From positions 560,334-624,333 of the forward strand of contig JAXLYR010000002.1 of the NCBI GenBank assembly GCA_046351325.1: a DNA stretch of 64,000 nucleotides. Reading direction: 5' to 3'. How positions within the stretch are numbered: the first letter of the stretch is position 1; each line of letters starts with the position of its first letter. Under the pieces are notes generated by a model, which worked only from the letters and a program-made list of their open reading frames with translations, did no database searches and was not told the origin of the DNA. Of this stretch, positions 5,165-30,458 are shown one piece after another. The stretch is from Polyangiaceae bacterium (lineage in GTDB: Bacteria > Myxococcota_A > Polyangia > Polyangiales > Polyangiaceae). Made by a program: the position numbers and the translations under genes.

Positions 5165-8100
5165 TCAGAGCCCGAGCTCGAGCCCGAGCGCGATCGTCGC
5201 CGCGTGCGTCGGGATCGCGTAGAACGCCCGTCGCGTCGGCTCCTCGCGGATGCGCGCGGCCCGCGTGTGGAGCCGCTCCAGCGCGTCGCGCGCCGCGTGC
5301 GCGGCCCGTGGATCGCTCGTCGCCATGAGCGCGCGGACCCACGCGAGGCAGACGACGGCCTCGCCCTCGTCGAGCACCCAGCGGCGCGCCTCGGCGTGTT
5401 CGATGGCCTCTCCGCGAGCGTGACAGCGCGCGCAGCGTCTCCGGCGGCGAGCGTCGCGAGCGCCTCGGTGGCGGTGGCGTACGGCAGGTGTTGCGGGTGG
5501 AGCTCGGCGCGCCGTCGCCCCGCGCGCGCCTCGGCGAGCGCTTGTTCGACGAGGCCTTCGGTGAGCAAGATCTCGCTCCTGTAGATGCGGCACGAGACCT
5601 CGTGGTGCATCGAGATCCCCGGCATCTCGAGGCATCGCTCGATGTGTCGCCGCCCGAGCGCGGGCCTGCCGGCGCGCGCGACCGCGAGCCCGAGGTTGTG
5701 GAGCGTGACGACGCGCAGGCCGTCGAGATCCATCCGCTCGGCGGTCGCGTACGCGGGCTCGAGCATCGCGATCGCGTCGGACAGCAGGCCGAGCTCGATG
5801 CTCATGAAGCCGGCGTTCGCGCGGTCGACCGCGGCGGAGCGCCGATTGCCGGCCTCGTCGTGGAGCGGAAACGCCCGAGCGAGGTGGCGACGCGCGCTCT
5901 CGAGATCGCCCGCGAGCTGTCGATCCCAGCCGAGCGCTCGTTCGAGGTAAGCGCGCACGTTCGCGGGCACCGGGTCGAGCGCGCGCGACGCCTTCTCGGC
6001 CGACGCGAAGAGCGCGCGGCGCAGCTCGGCGTCCGCGGCGAGCGCGATGCTCGAGGCGAGCCAAGCGCACCCCACGGCGAAGGACTCGACCGCGTCGGGG
6101 TCGGGCTTCGTCGCGATGAGATCGCGCAGCGCTTGCTGGAATCGGGGCGTGTCGGCGAGGCGCTCGGCGCTCATCGCGAGCTCGTAGAGCGCGACGCATC
6201 CATGGCGCGAGCCGGGTCGCAGAGCGCGGGCGGCGCGCGCGGCGTAAGCGGCCGCGCGATCGAAGCGGCCGCGCCAGCGCAGGGCCTCGGCGGCGACCAA
6301 GGCGAGGCGACCGGAGACGGGCTCGAGCGCGGGATCCTCGCGTCGCTCGAGGATCGCGAGCGCGCGCTCCGCGTGGCTCAGCGCGAGCGCGGTGTCGTCC
6401 GAGGCGAGCGCCCTCTCAGCGGCGTCGAGCCTGAACGGGAGCGCCGAGTCGGGGCGATCTCCACGTTCGAAATGCTCGGCGATCACCGCGGGATCGGCGC
6501 CCGCGAGCTCTGCGAGCCGCGCGCCGGCGCGGCGATGCCCTCGCGCGCGATCCGCTTCGGTGAGGCCTTGGTAAGCGCCCTCGGCGACGACCCGCTGACA
6601 AAACCGAAAGCGACCCGGAGCGCCGCCGTCGTCGGGCACGAGGAGCTCGAGCTCGAGCAGGCGAGGCGCCGCGCGCGCTGTCGCGCCCGGCTCGTCGAGG
6701 AGGTCGTCGACGAGGTCCGCGGTGAACGCGACGCCGAACACGCTCGCCGCGCGCAGGACGCGCCGCTCTTCGACCTCGAGCGCGTCGAGCCGGCCCTGCA
6801 CGACCGCGAGCAGAGAGTCGGGGAGCGCGTCCCCCGAGGCCTGCGTGCGCGCGAGCTGCTCCAAGAAGAGCGGGTTGCCGCCGGCGCGCTCGGCGATCTC
6901 GGTGACGCGCGTCGCGGGGGCGTCGGGTGGCAGGAGCGCGCGAGAGAGCTTGAGCGACGCCGCGCGCGAGAGCGGCGAGAGCGGCAGCCCGAGCGCGCGC
7001 GGCCCTGCGAGCTCGCGCGCCGGAGAGTCGTCCTCCTCCTCGAGCGGCCGACCGAGTGACACGATTGTAATCGGCGCCTCGGAGAGCGTGCGCTGCAAGC
7101 GGGCGAGGAGCGCGGCGCTCGCGCGGTCGGCCCACTGCGCGTCGTCGACGATCAGCACCGTCGGGGTCCGCGTCGTCAGCGCGCGCACGACCTCTTCGAA
7201 GGCGCGGCGCATGGCCTCGGCGGTGCCAGTCGGATCGCCGAGCCTTGCCTCGAGCCCGAGCGGCGCGCGCACGAGCGCCCCGAAATCCGCCAGCGTTCGA
7301 GCGTCGAGCGCGGGGCCGACGGACGCAGCGAGCTTCGTGATCGCGCGATCGATCTCGGCGCTCGACGAAGAGGTCGTCGCGCCGCAGAGCGCCCCCGCGA
7401 GGTGCGCGACGCACGCGAGCGCGCTCCCCGCCTCGAAGGCGTCGGCGGTCGCACGATAACAACGAAAGCCGAGCCCGCTCAGGCGTCGCTCGAGCTCGAA
7501 CGAGAGCCTCGTCTTGCCCGCACCGGGCGCGCCGGTCACGAGCGCGGCCCCCGCGGTGCGCTCGTCGCGCGACTCCTCCGCCAACGTGACGAGCTGGGTC
7601 ATCTCGCGATCTCGCCCGACGAAGGGGCCCCCGCCAGTCCCGGTCGGTAGCGCGAGTCGATCCATCGAGATCCAAGCGCCGGACGCGTCGTGCTCGACGG
7701 CGAGGTGCGGCTCGAACGCCGCGACGGCCTGGTCATCGAGCGCGATGCGCTCGACCGCGCCGCGCGGATCGGCGAGCCGCGCGCGAGCTGCCGCGAGTCG
7801 CTCGGGCGCGCGCGCCACGAGCGGTTCGCGAGAGGAGTCCTTGTCGACGCGGAGCACGCCGAGCCACGTGCGCTCGGCCCAGCCGGCCTCGACGAGCTCG
7901 GCCGCGCAGCGGAGCGCGGTCGTCGCGAGCTCGACCAGCGTGGCGCCGCGATCGACCACGACCGCGAAATGCTGTTCGTCGATCGCCTCGGGCGTGCCGA
8001 ACCGCGCGCAGCTTCGCAGGAGCCACGCGACCGACTCGTCGGCCGCGCCCGTGTGATCGAGCTTCGCGATGACGAGGCCGGCGACGCGGACCTCGTGGTC

Positions 8101-18208: not shown

Positions 18209-18817
18209 CTACACGACCTTCGCGAGGACCCGCGCGAGCTCGCCGACGAAGGTCCGATCGACGTGCTCCAGGTCGGCCTCGCGCGGCTGGATGAGGAGGC
18301 CCGTCACGAGCGGCCTCGTGATGAACGGCGGCGGCAAGGGCGGCAGCGCGGGCGCGGCGCGCAGGTAGGTCGCGTAGCCGAAGACGGGCTTGTCGTTCGC
18401 GAACGGCGGGAGCGGCGGGCGTGGCCACTCGTCGACCGCGACGTGGCCGTACGTCGGACTGACGACCTTCGCGAGCCCCTCGAGGAGGAGCGCCGCCTTG
18501 CCGAGCTCCAACCCGCCGCGGAACCGCACCACGATCTGATGAGGGATCCACGCCGACGGTAAGGGCCAATCCACCCCGGCGATCATGGACAGCGTTGTAA
18601 CTCGACCGGCGAGCTCCACGCCGAACGCCGTGCGCGCGCCGCCGACCTCACAAGGGCGCCTCGATCGCTCGACGGTCGCGCGCGGGTCGCGGCAGGCTGG
18701 GGCCCAGCTCGCGTCGCCACGCCCGAGGACCTCGAGCACTGCTGCCAAGCGACCAGCGACAGCGTCGACGTCCTCTCGCTTCGGCGCGTCGTAGAGCCGC
18801 ACGGACAGCGACCTCAC
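18209..18817 (-). CDS. Putative cognate immunity protein for the lipase effector
   Basis: GTG start overlaps the effector TGA (GTGA). About 200 aa with no recognisable catalytic motifs. Confidence 0.45.
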   Translation of the reverse strand: MRSLSVRLYDAPKREDVDAVAGRLAAVLEVLGRGDASWAPACRDPRATVERSRRPCEVGGARTAFGVELAGRVTTLSMIAGVDWPLPSAWIPHQIVVRFRGGLELGKAALLLEGLAKVVSPTYGHVAVDEWPRPPLPPFANDKPVFGYATYLRAAPALPPLPPPFITRPLVTGLLIQPREADLEHVDRTFVGELARVLAKVV

Positions 18818-20802
18818 GACGCGTCCTCCGCGGGGAGCCCGTAGAACTCGCGCGCCTCGGCCGAGATGCCCTTCACGAGCTCGTCGCGGACGGTCGCGTC
18901 CACCGCGAGCTCGGCGTGGGGGACCTGGCTCAGCTTGACGAAACGCTCGGAGAGCGGGCTCGAGACGAGCTCGTCCGGCGGACACGCTGACAAGAGTGGA
19001 ACCGCGCCGTCGCCCCAGAACGCCGCGCCCGTGGCGTCGGGTGTAGCGGGCGGGGTCGCGAACGGTGGGGTCGGCAGATACGACCACACGATGGAGTTCG
19101 CGTCGTAGCTCGAGCGGACGTCGAGGCATGCGAGGGTGCCCCCCGACTCGACAGCAATGTCCGAGGTCGCGTACGCGCTCGTCCGCGGGTGCACGTACGC
19201 GCGCGGCTTGATCTTGACCGCCGCTCTGTCCGCGGGCCGCTCGTCGAGCCTCTTCTTGAGCGCGGTCATGGCGTCCGTCTGCGTCTTGCTGTTTGCGACC
19301 GCGCGCCCGGCGGCCTCCGTGAAGGCTGCGGTCAGCGTCTCGGGCGCGGGCATCGATGGATTGAGCGTCAAGCTGTCCTCGAACCTCCGCGCGAGATCGA
19401 GCCCGAGCTTCGACAGGGGACGCAGGTCGACCCGATCGAGTAGGCCTACAAAGATGTCATTGTAAAGCGCGACCGGGTTCCGACTATTGATGAAGTGCTT
19501 GAGGATACGCTCCATAATGGCCTGTATGCGGGCCCCCAATCGATAGGCCTCTCGCGCGACCTTGCCCTCGGGGATCGTCATGAGCCCGATGAACGCCTCG
19601 GCGAACGTCTCCTTGTTCGCGCGCGTCAGCCTCGTGTCCTGCTCGACCGAAGCGGACGAGCGGGCGCGCTCCTCGGCCCGCGCGATCTCCGCGCCGAACA
19701 CCTGGATCCACGGGTTCTCCCCCGAGGTGGGCTTGTCGTGGATGGTCGTCGGGTCGAGCGGCGTCGGCAGCATCACGACATAGCCGCGCTGCGGATACGC
19801 CGTGTGCCACGGGTCGAAGCGCATCCAATGGCGCTCTCGGTCGCAATAGATGGCGTGGGGCATCGACTGGAAGATCGAGGGCATCGCGCGGAGGAACGCG
19901 ACAGTCTCGGCCCGCGTGAGACAGCGCCCCGCGCCGTGGACGAGCAACATATACAAGAGTGTCAGGTAGCCGACGTTCGCGACGCCGCCGCTCGCCGCGG
20001 TCGCGATCGCCGCCGCGATGTTGCCCGCGTCGGTGAGCGCTCCCTGCACGGTCGCGGCGACGTCGTCTTCCTCCTCGGGGTCGACGTGGAAATAGTCCTT
20101 CACGTAGGCGCCGGGGAGGCCATGTTTGAGGTGTACGAACATCTCGGGCGCGCCCAAGATCGGCGAGCCCAAGAGGTGCATCGCGAAGATCTTCGGCTCG
20201 CCGGCGAGCACGCGGCTGTAATAGCGAGCGACGCTACCGCCCATTCCGTGCGCGACGAGGACACATTGGGACTCTCCTGTCTCGGCGAGCACGCGGTCCA
20301 CGTATTGGGAGAGCCGCGCGGCCGACTTGCAGAGGTCGAGTCGCCAGTCGTATCCGAAGCAGTAGACCCTCACCCCGAGATCCAGCTCGGGGTGGTCTTT
20401 GCTCAACCTGTCTGTAAGCGATACGAGCAGATCCTCGAGGAGCAAGTCGTAGAAGGGCAGGACCAGCGCGCCGAGGTCGATGGGCTGATCGATGCGCTCG
20501 ACGGGCGCCTCGGCGTGGTGATCGACGACCTTTTCGGGGTCCGAGCGGTCGTAGAAGTCAGTCGCGGGCACGAGCTCGGTCGGCTCGAGCAGGCGGCCGT
20601 ATTGAATGACGAACGGCCCGCTCGTCGCGATCGTCATGGGGAAGCCGCTCGGGTTCCAGACGAGCTGGTCCGTCCCGGGGTCCTTGAGCCTCGTCATGAA
20701 GAGGTCCGGGATCACCACGACAGGCAGGAGGCGCCGCCGCAGGCCGAGCCGCACGCGCCGCCCCCCGCTCCGCTCGATCGTCCCTGACAAGATGCCGCTC
20801 AT
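18814..20802 (-). CDS. T6SS cargo effector candidate: LCAT/PGAP1-like alpha/beta-hydrolase lipase with Ser to Gly at the canonical nucleophile
   Basis: LCAT-family landmarks FGYDWRLD and LLGSPILGAPEM (cf. LGAPWGGS). Nucleophile elbow reads VLVAHGMGGSV rather than GHSxG. Sits 12 bp overlapped with, or downstream of, vgrG. Confidence 0.6.
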   Translation of the reverse strand: MSGILSGTIERSGGRRVRLGLRRRLLPVVVIPDLFMTRLKDPGTDQLVWNPSGFPMTIATSGPFVIQYGRLLEPTELVPATDFYDRSDPEKVVDHHAEAPVERIDQPIDLGALVLPFYDLLLEDLLVSLTDRLSKDHPELDLGVRVYCFGYDWRLDLCKSAARLSQYVDRVLAETGESQCVLVAHGMGGSVARYYSRVLAGEPKIFAMHLLGSPILGAPEMFVHLKHGLPGAYVKDYFHVDPEEEDDVAATVQGALTDAGNIAAAIATAASGGVANVGYLTLLYMLLVHGAGRCLTRAETVAFLRAMPSIFQSMPHAIYCDRERHWMRFDPWHTAYPQRGYVVMLPTPLDPTTIHDKPTSGENPWIQVFGAEIARAEERARSSASVEQDTRLTRANKETFAEAFIGLMTIPEGKVAREAYRLGARIQAIMERILKHFINSRNPVALYNDIFVGLLDRVDLRPLSKLGLDLARRFEDSLTLNPSMPAPETLTAAFTEAAGRAVANSKTQTDAMTALKKRLDERPADRAAVKIKPRAYVHPRTSAYATSDIAVESGGTLACLDVRSSYDANSIVWSYLPTPPFATPPATPDATGAAFWGDGAVPLLSACPPDELVSSPLSERFVKLSQVPHAELAVDATVRDELVKGISAEAREFYGLPAEDAS

Positions 20803-20814
20803 GGTCGTGCTCCC

Positions 20815-23800
20815 TCAGCTCCGGTAGGTCGTTGGGTCGAGGGCCTTCTCGGTCGCGCCGCCTTGGATGAGCTCGCCGCTCGGCGCGAGGCCCTGATCAC
20901 GCTGGTAGAGCGCGAGCGCTGCGACGTTCGCGGCGTCGGACGCGAGGGCTGCCTGCGCGCCCTTCTTCTCGAGCGGCGGCTCGATGGCCCGCGGGCTCGC
21001 GGGGTAGCCCAAGTTGAGGAGGCGCTGGCGCGTACCCTCCGCGGACTCGAGCGCGGCAAGTTCGTCAACCAGCTTGACGGACCACACGAGCGGCGCGTCG
21101 AAGAGGCGGTCGTCGGGCGCGACTTGATCGACGAAGAGGACCAAGGTCCCGCGCTCCTCCTTCAGGAGATCGCTCGGCACAGTGAGATCCGCGAGGCCGT
21201 CGTCGTCGGTCTCGCCGGCGAAGACCTGCGCGCGGAGCGTGAGCTCGAACCGCGTCTTCTTGAACGGGAGGAGACCGTGGTGGAGCGCGAGCTTGAGGGT
21301 CTCGGTCTTGGGCTCGCTGCTCTCTTCGCTCGCGTCGCTCGCGCTCGCGTTCGCCGAGCCGCTATCGAGCTTCACCGCTGGGGACTGGACGGTCGCGGCG
21401 TTCGCAGCTTTGAGCGTGGCCGAGTCCTTCTCGAGGACGAACGACGTCGACTGCGTCTCGAGCTTGAGCTTGGTGAGCGCCGAGCTCGCGACCCCCTCGT
21501 CGCTGAAGCTGAGCTCCTCGGTCTTGCGGCCCAGGGTGAGTTTGTCGTCCGCGTGGAGGTCGACGGTCTTCGCGGCTCGAATGACAACCTTGTCACTCGA
21601 GAGCGTGATCGTGTCCTTCGTGAGCTCGAGGAAGCTCGCGCCGCACGAGAGGCGCACCGTCGCGCCGTCTTTGTCCGTCAGCGTCGTCAGCTCGATCCGC
21701 TCGGTCGCGGTCGTGAGGACGCTGCCTTGTACGAACGTCGCGAGACGTCGCGCGGTCGGCGCGCCCTGGCCGACCTCGAGCGAGGCGTCGCCGAAGACGA
21801 TCTCGGTCGCGTCGCCCCCGACGGCGCGGTGACGCTCCCTCTTCACGCGCTCGAACGACACGCCGTCGACCTCGCGCGAGGCGCTGCCCCCGACGTGCTC
21901 GTCGAGGTTCTGCGCGACGTCGACGATGCGCCGCCCCTCCACCCTGATGACGGACGCGCCGCCAACAAGCTCGGTCGCGTCGCCGCCGCTCACCGCGAGG
22001 CGCGCGCCCTCCACGTCGCTCTCGAGCGTGCCGACGACGCGCTCTCGTCGGTCGCCGAGCACCGTCGTCGAGTGCGTGTCGGTGACGATCTCCTCGAGGT
22101 CCTTCTGGGCGTGCAAGAAGACCCGCTCGCAGCCCTGCGTGTCGTCGAACGAGAGCTCGTTGAAGCCGTCCCCGGTCGGGATCGACTGCGTGCGGAGCCC
22201 TGATTTGCCGAGCTGCTCGGGCAGCACGAACGGCAGCGGGTGGGTCGCGTTGTAGAGCGCCCCCATCACGAAGGGTCGGTCTGGGTCGCCGCCGACGAAC
22301 GCGACGACGACCTCCATCCCGACGCGCGGGAAGAACTGGAAGCCGAAGCCAGTGCCGGCCCACGGCTGCACGACACGCAGCCAATAGGAGGAGCGCTCGT
22401 CGTAGCGTCCTTGTCGGTCCCAATGGAATTGCACCTTCACCCGGCCGAGCCTGTCGACGAAGAGCGGCTTGCCAGGCGGGCCGACGACGACCGCAGTCTC
22501 GGGCGCGGCGGCGCGCAAGCGCTCAGGCGGCTCTGGACGATAGGCCACGTCCGCGGCGACCCACTCGAACGTGTTCGCGTATCCGGGCGCCCCGGACTGG
22601 GCTCCTGAGTTGACTTCGCAGTAAGCCGAATGGGTCACTCTGACAGGCGTGTAATCGCCCTCTTCGAAGGTTCGCGGCGTGCGGAGCCAATGCACCTTGT
22701 GACCCGGGAGGAGCCGCGGACAGTCGGACGCTCCCGACACGATGCGCGCGCGCCTGCGGTGCTGTTCGAGCGTCGCGCCCGCGAGGTCGGCCGTGAGGTC
22801 GGGTTTGTCATATTCACCGTGGTGCTCGTAGACCTCGAGCAGCGCCTGCGCGGCGAGGGCCGGCGCCTCGTGGAGCGAGCTCTCGGCTTTGTGGATTTGC
22901 AGCGGCTTGCGGTAGTCGCGGTCGCGGATCTCGACGCGCTGGACGGCCGCGGCCCGCCGCGCGACGACCGCTCGGATCGCGCGTGGCGCGCGTGGCTCGG
23001 CGCCGCTCGGTGCGCTCGACTCTACCCAATAGAGCTCGTCGCGCTGCGGAGCAGGCTCGGTTGCGGTCGAGAGCCCAGCCATCGCGTGAATCGGCGCCTC
23101 ATAATGGAGCGGGTCCAATCGCGCTGTGCCGCGGTGGCGCGTCGACCGGAATCGCTCGGCCGGTGCGTCCTCTCCCGCAGCGCCCGTCTCGGTCATATCG
23201 TCGTAGCCGTCGTCCCGAATGACGAGGACATCACAAGGGTGCGAAATCGAGGGTCCGCGGCCCTCGAAGATCCGCGACCTCGGGTCTTCAGGCTCTTCCT
23301 CGAGCGTCGAAAACACCATATCGGCGAACATGTTCGCTTGCCCCGCTTGGGCGTTCGAGCCGCCGGCGAACTGCGCCGACCCACCCGCAGCCGGCCCGGC
23401 CGCCGCACCTGCGCCGCCGCCAATTCCGAGCGCGACGCCCGCGGCGACGACGATGTCGGGCGGCTCGGGGATGGGGTCACCGCGACCGACGTGCTCCTCG
23501 ACGTGTTCGTAATACCAATAGACGCCAGCCTCGGCGAGGAGCCGGGTGACGAACTGCCAATCCGTCTCCTCGTATTGGGTCGTATACGGCCTGCGCTTAT
23601 AGGTCCTGTGGAGCGCGAGTCTGTGCGGTACGCCCGCGGTAGAGAGCACGCGGCTCACCACGTCGTGGAGGTGCATCGCTTGGAAGGACTGGGTGTTCTT
23701 GCGCAGGGTCGCGACGTGGGTGTGCGGGCGTATCTCGAGCTTGAGCACGAGCGGGAGAGCACAGTCGCCCGGTGCGAGCTCGACCGCCGTCACGATGCCG

Positions 23801-24012
23801 CTGCGCGGGACGCCGGCCACGTGCATGGAGAACGTCGCGGCGACGCCGAGCAGGTCGTGCGCGAGCGTGTCCACGTCGGCAGGGTGGTCGACCGGCGCGT
23901 GCCTCAGCTCGATGGTAAAAAGAAAGGGCTCGTTCACGGCCTCCACCCCCGAGATGGAGGTGATGGACCAATCGTCGAGTTGGTACGCGGCGTCGTGGAG
24001 CTCGAGGTGCAT
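20815..24012 (-). CDS. vgrG: VgrG spike protein with a C-terminal extension containing a peptidoglycan-binding-like (PG_binding_1-like) module
   Basis: N-terminal gp27-like region (TDWQFVTRLLAEAGVYWYYEH) and gp5-like beta-helix. C-terminal RQRLLNLGYP…AANVAALALYQRDQGLAPSGELIQGGATEKAL. Confidence 0.8.
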   Translation of the reverse strand: MHLELHDAAYQLDDWSITSISGVEAVNEPFLFTIELRHAPVDHPADVDTLAHDLLGVAATFSMHVAGVPRSGIVTAVELAPGDCALPLVLKLEIRPHTHVATLRKNTQSFQAMHLHDVVSRVLSTAGVPHRLALHRTYKRRPYTTQYEETDWQFVTRLLAEAGVYWYYEHVEEHVGRGDPIPEPPDIVVAAGVALGIGGGAGAAAGPAAGGSAQFAGGSNAQAGQANMFADMVFSTLEEEPEDPRSRIFEGRGPSISHPCDVLVIRDDGYDDMTETGAAGEDAPAERFRSTRHRGTARLDPLHYEAPIHAMAGLSTATEPAPQRDELYWVESSAPSGAEPRAPRAIRAVVARRAAAVQRVEIRDRDYRKPLQIHKAESSLHEAPALAAQALLEVYEHHGEYDKPDLTADLAGATLEQHRRRARIVSGASDCPRLLPGHKVHWLRTPRTFEEGDYTPVRVTHSAYCEVNSGAQSGAPGYANTFEWVAADVAYRPEPPERLRAAAPETAVVVGPPGKPLFVDRLGRVKVQFHWDRQGRYDERSSYWLRVVQPWAGTGFGFQFFPRVGMEVVVAFVGGDPDRPFVMGALYNATHPLPFVLPEQLGKSGLRTQSIPTGDGFNELSFDDTQGCERVFLHAQKDLEEIVTDTHSTTVLGDRRERVVGTLESDVEGARLAVSGGDATELVGGASVIRVEGRRIVDVAQNLDEHVGGSASREVDGVSFERVKRERHRAVGGDATEIVFGDASLEVGQGAPTARRLATFVQGSVLTTATERIELTTLTDKDGATVRLSCGASFLELTKDTITLSSDKVVIRAAKTVDLHADDKLTLGRKTEELSFSDEGVASSALTKLKLETQSTSFVLEKDSATLKAANAATVQSPAVKLDSGSANASASDASEESSEPKTETLKLALHHGLLPFKKTRFELTLRAQVFAGETDDDGLADLTVPSDLLKEERGTLVLFVDQVAPDDRLFDAPLVWSVKLVDELAALESAEGTRQRLLNLGYPASPRAIEPPLEKKGAQAALASDAANVAALALYQRDQGLAPSGELIQGGATEKALDPTTYRS

Positions 24013-24039: not shown

Positions 24040-25161
24040 TCAAGGTTTGGCGCGCTCGCGCAGGGCCCTCACGCGGTCGTCGAGCGCGCTCAGGAACCTG
24101 CGCTGCAGGGCGGGGTCCCGCATGAACATCGTGGCGAAATGCACGCGAACGGCCTCTCGCGCGGCGCTCGTGGTGAGGCCGTAGTCAGCCCACGCCTCCG
24201 CCGACAGATCGCCGTCGACGAGCAATTGCGCGCGGATCGCGACGTAGTCGTCGAGGCTGGTTTGTGGCAGCGCGAGCGTCTCGTCAGCGGGGTCGCGCGG
24301 CGCAGTGCTCTCGCGGACTGGAGTCCCAAACATCTCGGCGACGACCGCGCGCGGCGTCGTACCCCCGAATGGCAAGGCCGGGCGCGGCGCGAGCGGCGCG
24401 GCGATCGGGACTGTCGCGTCCGCAAAATCCTGAACTTGCTTTATCGACAATAAAGGAACCCTCGATTCGGTCGTGTTCGTCGACAGGGCACCGAGAGGGG
24501 CCGCGAGCTCGCGCGGCGCCGACAGGCCTCGTTTCGTCGCCAAGGCCATTTCGAGGATCGCGAAGCGAGCGTCGTCGTCGTCGTGCTCCGCGCCGCGCGC
24601 GTGGGCCTGAATCAGCCATCCGTCGCCGAGCCGCGTCTGTGTGGCTCCGCGCGGGAGCGGCTCCGGCACGGGGCGAAGGCGGTAGTTGAGCCATCCGAAG
24701 GGCAGGTGCCTTTGTTCGAAGGGGCGAATCGTCGCCGCGTCGAGCTGCCCTTCTTCGACCCACTCGCGGAGGAGCTCGGCCCACGGGATCGGGCCGCAAT
24801 GGACGAGCGCCTCGAGGCTCAGGCCCGGCTGTGTGGTTGCGACGCGAGAAGCAAAGACGATGTCCACGCGCCCTTCGACCGACTTGGGATCACCCTCGGT
24901 CGAGAACGACAGGCGCGCAGATGGCTGACCCGTGCGCGCCCCGGCCGCGCTCGGACTGCGCGGTGACAGGACGAGCGGCTCTCTCAGGGCGCGCGAGAGC
25001 ACTCCGAGCCAGGTCGAGGCGAGCGTCGCGGCCTGCTCGATGTCGAGGGGGCGCGTATGGCGACTGAGCTCCAGTTGAATCCTGCTCACGGCAGGGGAGT
25101 CGACGGGCGCTCCGAGCCGGTGACAGCCCTTCGTTGGGCGTCTCGCTCGACGAGCTGTCAC
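24040..25161 (-). CDS. Hypothetical protein immediately upstream of vgrG (possible T6SS accessory or adaptor)
   Basis: Ends 27 bp before vgrG. Protein-like composition. No motif that I can name. Confidence 0.4.
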   Translation of the reverse strand: MTARRARRPTKGCHRLGAPVDSPAVSRIQLELSRHTRPLDIEQAATLASTWLGVLSRALREPLVLSPRSPSAAGARTGQPSARLSFSTEGDPKSVEGRVDIVFASRVATTQPGLSLEALVHCGPIPWAELLREWVEEGQLDAATIRPFEQRHLPFGWLNYRLRPVPEPLPRGATQTRLGDGWLIQAHARGAEHDDDDARFAILEMALATKRGLSAPRELAAPLGALSTNTTESRVPLLSIKQVQDFADATVPIAAPLAPRPALPFGGTTPRAVVAEMFGTPVRESTAPRDPADETLALPQTSLDDYVAIRAQLLVDGDLSAEAWADYGLTTSAAREAVRVHFATMFMRDPALQRRFLSALDDRVRALRERAKP

Positions 25162-25229
25162 GGCTCTTGCTTGGCTCGGATCGGCTCGCCGTCCGCGAAT
25201 TGTCTGCGGACCGGATTTGGAGGGCTGCC

Positions 25230-28200
25230 ATGCTCGCTCGTCGCGCGCTTCTCTTGCCGGCTCGTGTGTTCGGACTGGTGGCTTTGCTGTCCAGTTGTGA
25301 AGAGAACGACTCCAATGCGCCCGACGCGCAGCCGAGCGCAGCGGTTGCGGCGCCGAGCGCGATGCCTGCGCCGAGGCCCGAGCTCCAAGCTGTCCCGGAG
25401 GGCGCCCCCATCTTCACGCGCACGGCCGCGGGGTGGACGGCGCTCGGCGCATCCCTGAGCGTGACCGTCGATGACAGTGACGTCAGCCTCACCTCGGAGC
25501 AGGCCACGCTCCATGTGGAGACGGAGCAGATGGGCCGTGGTGAGGACGCAGCGGTCGGCGCCCGTGAGGTGCACGAGAGACCCGACGGGGCGGTCGCGAT
25601 CGCTTACAGCAGTGTAGAGGAAATCTGGCGCGCGAGCGACACCTCCGCGGAGCAGAGCTTTCATTTCGCCGAGGTCCCCGAGGGCGCTGGGGATTGGACG
25701 GTTCGACTCGGCGTTTCAGGGTTGGAGCGCGCCTCCGCAGGGGAGGGGGGCGTCGTCTTCGAGGGGGCTGACGGCGCGTTCTTCCGCTATGGCGTCGCGA
25801 CCTGGGTCGACGCGCTCGGGGCCCGAACGACCATCGTGCCGAGCTACGAGGCAGGTCGCATCGTCCTGCGCGTGCCCGAGGCCTTGCTCGAATCGAGCGC
25901 GTACCCCGCAGTCCTCGACCCGGTCATTACCCCGCTGTCGGAGCTCGACGTGGGGAACCCTGGCGCCGGCCCCAACTTGGATCGCTTCGGCCCTGGAAAG
26001 TGGGCCGCGTGCGGCGCGTCGCGCTGCCTCATCGCGATTCGCCCGACGAGCGGGGTGAGCTTGCTCATTTGGACCGAGCTCGACGGCGGTCCGATCGGCG
26101 GCGGCGCTTATGCCCCAATCCCGACTCCCACGGTCGCTGGCGTCGGCTATGACAGCGGGCGCTTCACCGTCCTCACCCAGCCGTCGACCGCCGTGCTCCA
26201 CCTCACTCGTTATGACGAGAGCGGCGCCACAGTGGGCGGCTTCGACGCGGTCACCACCAACAACACCAAGTTCAACCCGGCCATCAACTGTGGCCACGGC
26301 TTCTGCCTCCTCACCTGGGTACAAGACAGTTTGCCCGGCCCCAGCTTCGCCGCGCGCGTGATGGCGGACGACTCGTTGCCCGACTTCCTCGGCTTCCCAC
26401 TGATCCCCTACACTGTGCGGCGCGTGACGGCAGCGATTGGCCCCACGCAGATGGCGGTCCAATTCGATAGCTCCTCGATCAGCCGCTACAACCACGACAC
26501 GACGTACATCGACTCGGGTGGGTCGTACACGGCAAACCCCGACACGATTGTAGGCACAGTCGTCGCGGGACCGAGCGCGTTCGTGTTCTCGACCGAGAAG
26601 TTCGTCTGGGCGCTCGACTACTCCTGGGTTCCGCTCCCGATGTCGGCGTCCGCTCGAGTCCTTTGCGATGCAGGGAGCGTCGATGGCTTCCAGTACTACT
26701 ATCCTGGGGATACCGGCCTGACCTACGCGAGTGATCGCCTCTTCATGGCGGTGGTGAGGGACCCCGACCCGAACGGCTACGTCCTCGCCAACAATGTCCT
26801 CATTGGTGCACAAGACCCGGCGTTTGTCGCGTGTCTCACCTCGGACGGCTACCAGTCCCTCGCGCAGAACCTCCTCGCCAAACAGAGCCGACCCGTCCTC
26901 GTGACCTCGGGGACCGACGCGCTCGCGCTCTTCCAACACGCCGACATGCGGCTGAAAGAGCTCGACACGGTCCGCGTGCGCCGGTTTGGCGCGACAGGGC
27001 CGACAGGCCCTGAGTACGTCCTCACCCAACACCAGGCTGTCCAATTTCGCCCGGCGCTCGCGTCCGACGGCGCTGGTTACATGGCTGTCTGGACCGAGGC
27101 CCGACTCGGCGGCTTCGCCGTCATGGCGCTGCCGCTCGACGGTCTCGGGAGCCCGACAGCGTCCCCGCGCCTCTTGGATTTCAACCAGGCCGGTCCCATC
27201 GAGACTGGTGCCTTCCCGCAAACCATAGAGCGGACCCCGAGCGTCGCTTGGAATGGCTCGCGCTACATCGTCGGCTGGAGTCGCTTCGACCCTGACGCGC
27301 CTTCGAGCCAATGGGTGGTACGGCTCGACTCGACTGGCAACCCGCTCGATCCGGCGCCCATCCGTGTGAGCCCAATCGACACGGTCACGCGCAACGAGGC
27401 GATCGTCGCCTCGAACGGTGCTGTGGATTTGGTCGGGTTTCACACCTCCACCGGGGAGTTTCGCGTCTATCGCCTCGGCGCGAGCGGCGCCCCGCTCGAG
27501 TCGCAAGGCATCTATCTCGGGGGCGGCGCGGGCACGGCTGTCGACGCCGCGTGGGACGGGACGCGGTTCTTCGTCGCGAGCAGCGCAGGGCTACATCGGC
27601 TGAGCGCGGCGGGGACGCTGCTCGAGGCCAACGTCTTTGGTCCGGCCCTCGCGGGGCCGCGGCTCGCGTGCTCGCCGACGGCGTGCCTCGTCGTCCACGC
27701 GCAGGCGCGTCTCTTCGCTGGCGACTCGAGCGCGATCGGTGGCGCGATCACCTACGCAACGGGGACTCCGAGCGAGTGGTCGGCGACTTACAATGGTGTA
27801 GACTATGTCGTCGCTTACACGGACGCGTCCGGCACGCTGTGGGGGCGCACGCTGTCGTCCGCCGGCGTCCCCCAGGGCTCGAGCCCGTTCCTCGTCCTGA
27901 GCGGACAGAACAGTCAGCCTGCTGTGGCGAGTCGTGGAGACGGCACCGCCATCGTCCTCACTGCCCGCCGCGACGGGACCTCGCCCTCGGGTCGACTCCG
28001 GATCTTCTCGGGGCGCATCGAGGCGTCTCTGTCGCTCGGTCAGGCCTGCTCGACGAACGACGATTGTGGCTCGCAATATTGCGTAGACGGGGTCTGCTGC
28101 AACTCGCTTTGCGGCGCAGGTGCCGCGGATTGCCAGGGCTGCAGCGTCGCGACTGGCGCGCTCACCAATGGGACCTGCAGGGTATATTCCGCGAGCTCGG

Positions 28201-30458
28201 TGTGTCGCGCGGCGACCTCCGAGTGCGACGTCGCTGAGGTTTGCAACGGCATTGTGGGCTCCTGTCCAGCGGACGCGGCCAAGCCAGTCGACACGATCTG
28301 CGGGGCTCCCGTGGCCGGCCCTTGCGACCTCGAGGATCGGTGCGCGGGCACTGTGGGCGCCTCCGCGACGTGCCAAGCGCGGTTCGTTTTGGGGGGGACG
28401 ATCTGCAGAGCCAGCACTGGGCCTTGTGACCCTTCGGAGTCCTGTAGTGGTGGGAACGCCGCGTGCCCGGCTGACACGCTGTTCCCCGCGGGCATGCTTT
28501 GCCGCTCGGCCTCGGGGCCGTGTGACGCGCCAGACTATTGCTCCGGTTCGAGCGGGACGTGCGCGGACGCGGTCCTCGATCCGAGCACGATCTGTCGCGC
28601 AGCGGTCTCTCAATGTGATCTCGACGAGGCGTGCAATGGCGTAGCCAAGACGTGTCCGACCGACGCCGCGCGCCCTGTCGGGTCTGCGTGCAATGGCGCT
28701 CCCGTTGGAGCCTGTGACCTGCAAGACACCTGCTCTGGGACTGTCGGCGCTACGGCTATATGCAACGCGAGGCTCGCCACCAGCGGCACTGTCTGTCGAG
28801 CGGCGGCTGGCACTTGCGACCAGCCGGAGACCTGCACAGGAGCGGCCCCGAGCTGTCCAGTCGACTCCTTCAAGAACACTGTCTGCAGGCCCTCGACGGG
28901 CGTCTGCGATTTGGTCGAGTGGTGCACAGGAGCGGCCCCCGACTGCCCAGCCGACGTCCTCGAGGTCGGGACGCTTTGTCGCGCAGCGGCCGGGGACTGT
29001 GATGTCGCGGAGACCTGTAATGGCCTCTCCGGACAATGCCCTGCCGACGCGCGCTCGGTCGCGGTCTGTAGGCCTTCGGCGGGCCCGTGTGACGAGGCAG
29101 AGTCCTGCGACGGCGTCGCGGTCAGCTGCCCGGCAGACGCGTTCGCACCTGCGAGTCAGGTGTGTAGAACCGCAGCGGGCGCATGTGATCTCGCCGAGGC
29201 CTGCACGGGCTCGTCCGCGACTTGCCCACCTGACGGCCTGCGGGCCTCGGGCGCGCTCTGTCGCGGTTCGACTGGAATTTGCGACGCCGCAGAGACCTGC
29301 AACGGCAGCTCTCCTGCTTGCCCTACGGACTTGTTCGCGCCGCCGACGACAGTATGTCGGCCCTCTCTTGGGGTCTGCGACCTCGAGGAGAAATGCAATG
29401 GCGTGAGTGGCTCGTGTCCCGCGGACGAGGTGGCGTCCCCGACGACAGTTTGTCGGGCCTCAGCAGGGGTCTGCGACCCCGAGGAGAAATGCAATGGCGT
29501 GAGTGTATTGTGCCCTTCAGATTGGCTCTCCACGGCGGCGTGTCGACCATCGGCTGGTCCTTGCGACTACACGGAGTTCTGCAATGGCGCCATGGCCGAC
29601 TGCCCGCCCGACGGGCTCGTCGCGGCCAACACCGTTTGCCGCTCCGCGGCCGGCGCGTGCGACATCGTCGAGCGCTGCGATGGGGCGTCCCCTGCTTGCC
29701 CGAGCGATGGCCACGCGCTCGTGGGCACGCTTTGCAGACCCTCTCTCAGCGAGTGCGACGCGCCCGAGCACTGCGACGGGAGCGCGGTCTGTCCATTGGA
29801 CGCGGCGGTCGCGGCGGGCACTGCCTGTGGGGTTCAGCCGACAGGCAGCTGCGACCTATGGGACCTTTGCACGGGGACAGTCGGCGCCAGCGCATACTGT
29901 CAGGCTCGTCTCGCCTCGAGCGGGACCATTTGCAGGCCGCCCGATGGCCCGTGCGACGCCCTCGAGCTCTGTGACGGCTCGCACGTGAACTGTCCTGTTG
30001 ACAAGCTTGTCATCGATGGAACTGCCTGTGGTGAGGCTGGCGTCTGTTTGGGCGGTATCTGCGACGAGGGGGGTGGTGGTTCAGGCGGCGCGGGTGGCTT
30101 CGGCGGTGGTGGCGCCGGCGGCCTCGGCGGTGGTGGTGCTGGTGGCGGCGCGGGTGGCCTCGGCGGCGGTGGAGCTGGCGGTCTCGGCGGTGGCGGTGGT
30201 CTCGGCGGCTCGGGTGGCTCCCCAACGGGAGGATCGAGTCTGGGTGGTGGTGGAGACGGGACCGCAGGTACTGGTGGCGCGAACTCGGGTGGTGGTGGAG
30301 ACGAGCCGACCGGCGGAATGGGCGGCGGCGGTGGTGGTGGACAGGGTTGCGACTGTCGCGCGAGCCCGACGAGCTCCGCGCTCGGCGCCCCCTATTGGGT
30401 GCTCGCATTGGCGCTCTTGCTCTCGCGGCGGAAGGGCACTCGCTCGGACAACACCTAG
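25230..30458 (+). CDS. Giant (about 1742 aa) lipoprotein: N-terminal beta-rich region, about 20 tandem Cys-rich repeats, Gly-rich spacer, MYXO-CTERM sorting tail
   Basis: GGAGGG sits 6 nt before ATG 25230. Signal LLSSCEEN. Repeats of type T.CR...G.CD..E.C.G....CP.D. Ends …GGGQGCDCRASPTSSALGAPYWVLALALLLSRRKG. Confidence 0.8.
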   Translation: MLARRALLLPARVFGLVALLSSCEENDSNAPDAQPSAAVAAPSAMPAPRPELQAVPEGAPIFTRTAAGWTALGASLSVTVDDSDVSLTSEQATLHVETEQMGRGEDAAVGAREVHERPDGAVAIAYSSVEEIWRASDTSAEQSFHFAEVPEGAGDWTVRLGVSGLERASAGEGGVVFEGADGAFFRYGVATWVDALGARTTIVPSYEAGRIVLRVPEALLESSAYPAVLDPVITPLSELDVGNPGAGPNLDRFGPGKWAACGASRCLIAIRPTSGVSLLIWTELDGGPIGGGAYAPIPTPTVAGVGYDSGRFTVLTQPSTAVLHLTRYDESGATVGGFDAVTTNNTKFNPAINCGHGFCLLTWVQDSLPGPSFAARVMADDSLPDFLGFPLIPYTVRRVTAAIGPTQMAVQFDSSSISRYNHDTTYIDSGGSYTANPDTIVGTVVAGPSAFVFSTEKFVWALDYSWVPLPMSASARVLCDAGSVDGFQYYYPGDTGLTYASDRLFMAVVRDPDPNGYVLANNVLIGAQDPAFVACLTSDGYQSLAQNLLAKQSRPVLVTSGTDALALFQHADMRLKELDTVRVRRFGATGPTGPEYVLTQHQAVQFRPALASDGAGYMAVWTEARLGGFAVMALPLDGLGSPTASPRLLDFNQAGPIETGAFPQTIERTPSVAWNGSRYIVGWSRFDPDAPSSQWVVRLDSTGNPLDPAPIRVSPIDTVTRNEAIVASNGAVDLVGFHTSTGEFRVYRLGASGAPLESQGIYLGGGAGTAVDAAWDGTRFFVASSAGLHRLSAAGTLLEANVFGPALAGPRLACSPTACLVVHAQARLFAGDSSAIGGAITYATGTPSEWSATYNGVDYVVAYTDASGTLWGRTLSSAGVPQGSSPFLVLSGQNSQPAVASRGDGTAIVLTARRDGTSPSGRLRIFSGRIEASLSLGQACSTNDDCGSQYCVDGVCCNSLCGAGAADCQGCSVATGALTNGTCRVYSASSVCRAATSECDVAEVCNGIVGSCPADAAKPVDTICGAPVAGPCDLEDRCAGTVGASATCQARFVLGGTICRASTGPCDPSESCSGGNAACPADTLFPAGMLCRSASGPCDAPDYCSGSSGTCADAVLDPSTICRAAVSQCDLDEACNGVAKTCPTDAARPVGSACNGAPVGACDLQDTCSGTVGATAICNARLATSGTVCRAAAGTCDQPETCTGAAPSCPVDSFKNTVCRPSTGVCDLVEWCTGAAPDCPADVLEVGTLCRAAAGDCDVAETCNGLSGQCPADARSVAVCRPSAGPCDEAESCDGVAVSCPADAFAPASQVCRTAAGACDLAEACTGSSATCPPDGLRASGALCRGSTGICDAAETCNGSSPACPTDLFAPPTTVCRPSLGVCDLEEKCNGVSGSCPADEVASPTTVCRASAGVCDPEEKCNGVSVLCPSDWLSTAACRPSAGPCDYTEFCNGAMADCPPDGLVAANTVCRSAAGACDIVERCDGASPACPSDGHALVGTLCRPSLSECDAPEHCDGSAVCPLDAAVAAGTACGVQPTGSCDLWDLCTGTVGASAYCQARLASSGTICRPPDGPCDALELCDGSHVNCPVDKLVIDGTACGEAGVCLGGICDEGGGGSGGAGGFGGGGAGGLGGGGAGGGAGGLGGGGAGGLGGGGGLGGSGGSPTGGSSLGGGGDGTAGTGGANSGGGGDEPTGGMGGGGGGGQGCDCRASPTSSALGAPYWVLALALLLSRRKGTRSDNT

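Follow-up and report, generated by a model that had tools for sequence, protein, structure and literature searches.

A Tle4-like type VI effector from a Polyangiaceae bacterium with glycine at the nucleophile elbow and a coupled acidic substitution in the oxyanion loop

A vgrG-effector-immunity module

The stretch of DNA analyzed here (the window; 64,000 nucleotides of contig JAXLYR010000002.1, assembly GCA_046351325.1, positions 560,334 to 624,333) comes from a Polyangiaceae bacterium and carries three consecutive genes on its minus strand. These are a vgrG spike gene (20815-24012, 1065 aa; Pfam Phage_GPD at 2.6e-45, Gp5_trimer_C at 3e-23 and Phage_base_V at 2.6e-17), a gene for a 662-aa effector of the Tle4/LPLA2-like alpha/beta-hydrolase type whose active site has no serine nucleophile (18814-20802), and a divergent Imm52-like immunity gene with a GTG start (18209-18817, 202 aa). 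The vgrG gene lies directly upstream of the effector gene, with 12 nt between the end of one and the start of the other, and the stop codon of the effector gene and the GTG start of the immunity gene share a 4-nt overlap (GTGA). Both the effector and the immunity open reading frames (ORFs) are intact and full length, each with a third-position GC content (GC3) of 0.89, and the effector sequence is identical to that of a hypothetical protein deposited at NCBI from a Polyangiaceae metagenome-assembled genome (MAG). An initial sequence-only reading of this DNA had described the protein as a VgrG-linked effector, which is borne out by the position of vgrG and by the same gene order in related loci. 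The protein is a VgrG-linked Tle4/LPLA2-like alpha/beta hydrolase, a type VI secretion system (T6SS) spike cargo, encoded with its cognate Imm52-like immunity gene. Its active site combines Gly186 at the nucleophile elbow with Asp33 in the oxyanion loop, one of several Ser-less configurations that recur in the family and are all maintained by selection.

Tle4 (TplE, PA1510 of Pseudomonas aeruginosa, solved with Tli4 in PDB entry 4R1D) is the closest known relative. It is the best sequence match of the family profile (E=1.5e-16), with its PGIMGT loop, GYxW motif and HSMGG elbow aligned and the GD(E/G)TVP motif in common, and both proteins are vgrG-linked T6SS cargo. An AlphaFold2 model computed from an alignment of 31 sequences (predicted local distance difference test score, pLDDT, 79; predicted template modelling score, pTM, 0.83) has Tle4 as its closest PDB structure (Foldseek E 1e-10), followed by lysosomal phospholipase A2 (LPLA2), which ranks ahead of LCAT among eukaryotic enzymes. 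In Pfam, the LCAT profile (PF02450) matches with 28.8 bits against a gathering cut-off of 21, above chance, in a region confined to residues 147-228 (profile positions 88-175 of 392). The LCAT half of the earlier LCAT/PGAP1-like assignment is thereby upheld, whereas the PGAP1 half is not, the PGAP1 profile (PF07819) reaching a non-significant 11.6 bits against a cut-off of 24.3 (E=0.23).

Active-site motifs of the effector

In the AlphaFold2 model, residues 33, 186, 598 and 629 directly follow strands 24-31, 180-185, 596-598 and 621-624, that is, they hold the canonical oxyanion-loop, elbow, acid and histidine positions. The oxyanion-loop motif IPDLFMTRL (residues 31-39; 20686-20712, minus strand, as for all motifs below) follows strand 24-31, corresponds to a family consensus of VPGIMGTRL and aligns with IPGIMGTNL of Tle4; its Asp33 (GAC, 20704-20706) stands where the loop has a conserved Gly. 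YDWRL (residues 151-155; 20338-20352), a landmark of the LCAT and Tle4 families, can be read directly, and the family alignment shows no variation at Y151, D152, R154 and D156. The elbow VLVAHGMGGS (residues 181-190; 20233-20262) has canonical geometry in the model, with strand 180-185 leading into helix 187-198, and carries Gly186 (GGA, 20245-20247) in the position of the catalytic Ser. The "LGAP" landmark GSPILGAP (residues 212-219; 20146-20169) comes after strand 205-211, and its P214 and G217 are conserved across the family. Further downstream, GDGAVP (residues 597-602; 18997-19014) places Asp598 at the triad-acid position, with Ala600 where Ser-type members have Thr, and His629 (18916-18918) occupies the family-conserved column of the triad histidine.

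The sequence-only reading had relied on YDWRL, the elbow and GSPILGAP to anchor an LCAT-type alignment, and these landmarks, together with the above-threshold LCAT match, do anchor it. Its inference that the Ser-to-Gly change at the elbow is real also holds. In a phmmer search of PDB sequences, AHGMGG of the window protein aligned residue for residue with AHSMGG of Lip_vut1 and of Bacillus subtilis LipA, and the family profile set the same elbow on THSMGG of Tle4; Gly186 therefore occupies the nucleophile position. The Ser-Asp-His triad that an AlphaFold model had been expected to locate is thus present in part: Asp598 and His629 stand at the acid and histidine positions, and the Ser nucleophile of the LCAT-family triad is absent, with Gly186 in its place.

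Recurrent serine-less elbows in a myxococcal family

An exhaustive search of 1.84 billion representative proteins gave 1427 relatives, about 35 of them full-length homologues (620-750 aa, 30-41% identity), and scans of genomes and metagenomes recovered 38 loci. A further homologue search returned 3 proteins from the single sequence and 2 from the profile, the family being recovered from the representatives and the locus scans. The family is confined almost entirely to Myxococcota: 17 of 20 genome loci come from Myxococcota MAGs, and the remaining three, from Microbulbifer, Simiduia and an Acidimicrobiales MAG, give distant matches of short length. Upstream of the effector, every related locus with a long enough contig carries a VgrG homologue.

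Within the full-length family, about 55% of the clusters at 50% identity have Ser in the elbow column and about 40% have Gly, with an occasional Cys, and three sequences (L019, at 6001-7746 of its own contig, L035 and L036) carry Glu (AHEMGG, codons GAA/GAG). Gly forms are interspersed with Ser forms in the tree. The Gly form L012 pairs with the Ser form P0008 at 100% bootstrap support, and the Gly forms L015, L017 and P0019 are sister to the Ser forms L009, L014 and L020, also at 100%. P0001 and P0004 (Asp33/Gly186) group with P0005 (Gly33/Ser186) at 94%, with about 50% identity between P0004 and P0005, and the clade of P0002, P0021 and P0018 (98%) has Gly throughout. By Fitch parsimony over 100 bootstrap neighbour-joining (NJ) trees, the elbow changed 11-14 times; the Ser-less state has thus arisen repeatedly. 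The Ser codon is AGC in 13 of 14 Ser homologues and the Gly codon is mostly GGC, one transition away; GGA of the window effector is two substitutions from AGC.

A coupled acidic substitution in the oxyanion loop

Substitutions at residues 33 and 186 are coupled across the family. In non-redundant counts, the Gly33/Ser186 combination occurs 84 times, Asp33/Gly186 15 times, Glu33/Gly186 three times, Gly33/Gly186 seven times, and Gly33/Cys186 and Gly33/Glu186 twice each, whereas Asp or Glu at residue 33 together with Ser186 does not occur (0). VPG has thus become VPD or VPE in 18 of 25 Gly-elbow forms and in 0 of 84 Ser forms (naive Fisher p=3e-15). On the 100 bootstrap NJ trees, parsimony places 5-8 changes at residue 33, every one of them on a Ser-less background. 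Moreover, Gly33 is replaced by Asp or Glu only, although its GGC codon leads just as easily to Ala, Val, Ser, Cys and Arg, a restriction that looks like selection for a carboxylate. The same states are found in a second subfamily of VgrG-linked LCAT-like effectors of about 800 aa, in which L021 (Gly33/Gly186), P0043 (Asp33/Gly186) and L039 (Glu33/Gly186) adjoin the Ser relative P0059 in a clade of 45-62% identity (62% between P0043 and L021), and which likely shows the order of events. The sequence-only reading included neither this coupled change from Gly33 to Asp nor the recurrence and conservation of the Ser-less state in the family.

A related position has been studied in the pair formed by the esterase SABP2 and the hydroxynitrile lyase (HNL) HbHNL, where Gly12 directly precedes the first oxyanion residue and its replacement with Thr closes off the oxyanion hole, with a 2000-fold loss of esterase activity (PMC10473745). 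The pair is a precedent for a change of mechanism, in which a side chain on the pre-oxyanion Gly turns an alpha/beta hydrolase away from ester hydrolysis; HNLs, however, keep their Ser, the new residue is Thr rather than a carboxylate, and the proteins are unrelated in sequence and biology. By this analogy, the side chain of residue 33 should point into the catalytic pocket, and Asp33 would extend at the oxyanion hole, beside His629, into the room left by Ser186.

Conservation of the serine-less forms

At the other conserved positions, conservation is as high in Ser-less members as in Ser members. Across about 100 columns conserved at >=85%, mean deviations are 5.5 for members with an acid at residue 33 and Gly186, 3.7 for Gly33/Gly186 members and 5.6 for Ser forms. 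Asp598 (in GDG) is present in every Ser-less member examined, both Asp598 and His629 in 16 of 16 aligned members with acidic residue 33 and Gly186, and His629 in all but three of the Ser-less members aligned. Thr600 of GDGTVP behaves differently: within the long family, 19 of 23 Ser members carry it, against 2 of 20 Ser-less members whose motif is readable. Its counterpart in LPLA2 is Thr329, which was docked against the lipid phosphate in the LPLA2 study (PMC6027918). Asn607 is likewise relaxed in the Asp33/Gly186 class. In the cap helix, column 288 (19939-19941 in the window) is mostly Cys in Ser-less forms and Ser or Cys in Ser forms; it is Val in the window effector and Thr or Val throughout its clade.

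Imm52-like immunity proteins

The order VgrG, effector, Imm52-like protein is found in 20 of 20 genome loci. Among 16 well-matched metagenome loci, an Imm52-like ORF lies directly downstream of the effector in 15, with a weak match (E=3e-4) in the sixteenth. A profile hidden Markov model (HMM) of the syntenic immunity proteins matches the window ORF at 18209-18817 with E=2e-9 (phmmer E=2e-10). Pfam Imm52 (PF15579) is matched by eight of ten aligned syntenic immunity proteins, and the window immunity protein itself has no match in Pfam, to Imm52 or otherwise. Ser-less loci always keep their cognate immunity gene, and the immunity proteins of these loci score 150-260 bits against the family HMM, in the same range as those of Ser loci. 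No signal peptide or transmembrane segment was found in the immunity proteins, including the window copy. Since the immunity protein appears cytoplasmic, its pairing with a lipase-fold effector suggests that protection takes place in the cytoplasm and that the toxin may act on a cytoplasm-facing site. Earlier work had connected Imm52 with Tox-REase-5 nucleases (PMC3482391).

A proposed remodelled catalytic centre and its alternatives

The effector is best read as a toxin with a naturally remodelled, Ser-less centre in which Gly186 and Asp33 are combined with a retained Asp598 and His629, a reading to which we give a probability of about one half. Such a protein would be unable to form the acyl-serine intermediate of the Tle1-4 phospholipases. 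It probably remains a toxin, because the immunity genes and the Asp598/His629 pair persist, and the earlier description of a "catalytically altered or inactive toxin" points in the right direction. As to mechanism, our preference, a tentative one, is for Ser-independent hydrolysis of membrane phospholipid. Water in the cavity left by the Ser-to-Gly change could be activated by the His629-Asp598 pair, and Asp33 could either be a helper base or coordinate a cation that takes over from the blocked oxyanion hole; the resulting chemistry would resemble that of secreted phospholipase A2 on a lipase scaffold. It is conceivable, although we would not count on it, that the family as a whole has repeatedly converted the Ser-His-Asp triad into a Ser-less, carboxylate-containing centre that is still catalytic, either hydrolyzing lipid with His-activated water (possibly with the help of a cation) or carrying out a new reaction on membrane lipids. 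The acid would then be supplied by the oxyanion loop (Asp33 or Glu33) or, in one lineage, by the elbow itself (Glu186).

Several observations weigh against a remodelled catalytic centre, and part of them would fit a protein that is no longer an enzyme. The proximity of Asp33 and His629 is putative, and a tetrahedral oxyanion should form less readily when a carboxylate occupies the oxyanion hole. The Glu-elbow forms L019, L035 and L036 have Tyr in place of His629 while keeping Asp598 and the Imm52 gene, and the Gly33/Gly186 form L032 has Glu at position 629, so that one carboxylate-His chemistry cannot explain every Ser-less form. Gly33/Gly186 forms without the acid are stable and are the best conserved of all, and the relaxation of Thr600 and Asn607 in Ser-less forms hints at lost or changed substrate binding. 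A non-catalytic pseudoenzyme, acting by lipid binding or extraction, by membrane perturbation, or by loading or stabilizing the VgrG spike, would have no need of the triad; its pocket would drift, and the pairs Asp33 with His629 and Glu186 with Tyr629 would be structural compensation for buried polar groups. The coexistence of Gly33/Gly186, Asp33/Gly186, Glu33/Gly186, Glu186 with Tyr629 and Gly186 with Glu629 suits such a protein, as does the fact that the small residues one step from AGC are Gly and Cys, the ones seen, which fits a steric rather than a chemical constraint at the elbow. Neuroligins likewise retain the alpha/beta-hydrolase fold with Gly replacing Ser at the strained elbow; they are, however, adhesion proteins without an immunity partner, whereas the present family toggles repeatedly and its loss of Ser is coupled to the gain of an acid. 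Drift is also difficult to reconcile with residue 33 having changed to Asp or Glu only, at least five times and never on a Ser background, which points to selection for a carboxylate, or with an invariant Asp598 and a His629 missing from just three aligned Ser-less sequences at about 35% pairwise identity. Nor would it readily account for the intact, well-conserved and translationally coupled immunity genes of Ser-less loci. We consider a pseudoenzyme somewhat unlikely, while retaining it as a serious competitor.

Whatever holds for its relatives, the window copy might itself be decaying or inactive. It is the most divergent member of the family, with 16-20 deviations at conserved columns (the family maximum), including G36M in the oxyanion loop, Y222F, Y311F, D439N and T452V, and with three Tyr hydroxyls lost in all; its branch is the longest in the tree, and its immunity protein, shortened to 202 aa, resembles the others weakly, with a score of only 30 bits against the family HMM. 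Its vgrG island is also an orphan, with T6SS core genes not found nearby. It may accordingly work less well than its relatives, but outright decay is improbable given the intact ORFs, their GC3 and their 4-nt start/stop overlap, the retention of D33, G186, D598, H629 and most invariant residues, and the conservative nature of many of its deviations (A to S/C/V, V to I, Y to F). A covalent mechanism through another Ser or Cys is very improbable. The sequence-only reading had offered the serine of GGS (S190) as a substitute nucleophile, and S190 does lie four residues past the elbow, but it is unique to this protein and no conserved catalytic residue: most homologues have Leu in its column, and the rest have Asn, His, Ala, Cys, Ser, Thr or Met. 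It also falls in the first turn of helix 187-198, and the suggestion was rejected. Cap position 288 has in its favour a Ser or Cys in nearly all relatives, with Cys in most Ser-less ones; the association with Ser-less forms is loose, and the Val of the window effector removes Cys288 as a candidate here. An ordinary GHSxG lipase misread in sequencing or assembly would in principle suit a MAG as the source, but the probability of this is negligible: GGA differs from AGC at two positions, which excludes a single base-calling error, the elbow change is coupled to a second change 153 codons upstream, and the same state is present in dozens of independent assemblies (JGI, ENA, Logan and NCBI).

Comparison with known hydrolases

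Among the defining features of Tle1-4 are the GxSxG serine and an immunity protein of the Tli type that is exported, and Tle4 combines its serine with phospholipase A1 activity (PMC9860674). The window effector shares with the Tle4 family the sequence and structural homology, the vgrG linkage and the Asp and His of the triad, but it has Gly186 and Asp33 in place of the GxSxG serine, and its immunity protein is Imm52-like, has no signal peptide and is not Tli4. The family differs from Tle4 further in a large cap (about 330 residues, 214 to about 540) with invariant motifs of its own, and in its almost exclusive occurrence in Myxococcota. LPLA2 and LCAT share with the effector the above-threshold LCAT match, a homologous VPGx oxyanion loop and a D-x-T motif. 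LPLA2 is also known for an unusual Asp13 "next to the oxyanion hole" in its VPGD loop, which tunes its pH profile (PMC6027918). Both enzymes nevertheless keep their serine (Ser165 or Ser181) and the acyl-enzyme route, and in them it is the oxyanion residue itself that is acidic or Cys (VPG-D/C), whereas the effector replaces the Gly that precedes it.

A Ser is not obligatory on this fold: haloalkane dehalogenases and epoxide hydrolases (for example, the virulence factor Cif) use a carboxylate-His-acid centre. In these enzymes, however, the Asp is located at the elbow, whereas the elbow of the window effector is Gly and its acid comes from the oxyanion loop at residue 33. In addition, the forms with Glu at the elbow (L019 and L035) have lost the His, and no substrate of the dehalogenase or epoxide hydrolase type is evident for a T6SS toxin.

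In the literature searched, neither this family nor its pairing with Imm52 nor the swap between Ser186 and Gly33 is described, and searches on natural Ser-to-Gly lipase toxins, on myxobacterial Tle effectors and on Imm52 with lipases returned nothing relevant. The coupled change of Gly33 to Asp or Glu and of Ser186 to Gly in a Tle4-like family is new here. The Tle1-4 families are defined by the GxSxG serine, yet about 40% of the clusters in this Tle4-like family lack it, under the same purifying selection and with their immunity genes kept. If the Ser-less forms are active, motif-based annotation discards real toxins as "inactive", and a new catalytic arrangement would be at hand; if they are inactive, they would represent rare pseudoenzyme cargo of the T6SS that still needs immunity. 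Should the centre indeed rely on a carboxylate, the family would be a natural case of a catalytic group that has moved within the alpha/beta-hydrolase fold, and its toxins would be immune to covalent serine-hydrolase inhibitors. The locus also links Imm52 to lipase-fold effectors.

Surroundings of the module in the window

The neighbours of the orphan vgrG island include kinases, a TPR/STAND protein, an adenine deaminase and a sigma-54 activator. Searches of the effector and its neighbours against NCBIfam and PADLOC were uninformative, and a PAAR or DUF4280 homologue was looked for beside vgrG in the window and was not found. The C-terminal 351 aa of VgrG (residues 715-1065; 20818-21870, minus strand) have no significant Pfam match and, unlike locus L001, no Pfam PG_binding domain; in L001, the counterpart of this C-terminal extension is encoded separately, by an ORF of 263 aa that weakly matches PG_binding_1. 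Directly upstream of vgrG lies a 373-aa ORF (24040-25161, minus strand) without a Pfam or PADLOC match, which was considered as an Imm52-like protein and rejected as unrelated to that family. Adjoining the vgrG island on the plus strand is a 1774-aa ORF (25134-30458) with 11 stretches matching Pfam Disintegrin (PF00200; E=2e-79), a giant cysteine-rich repeat protein.

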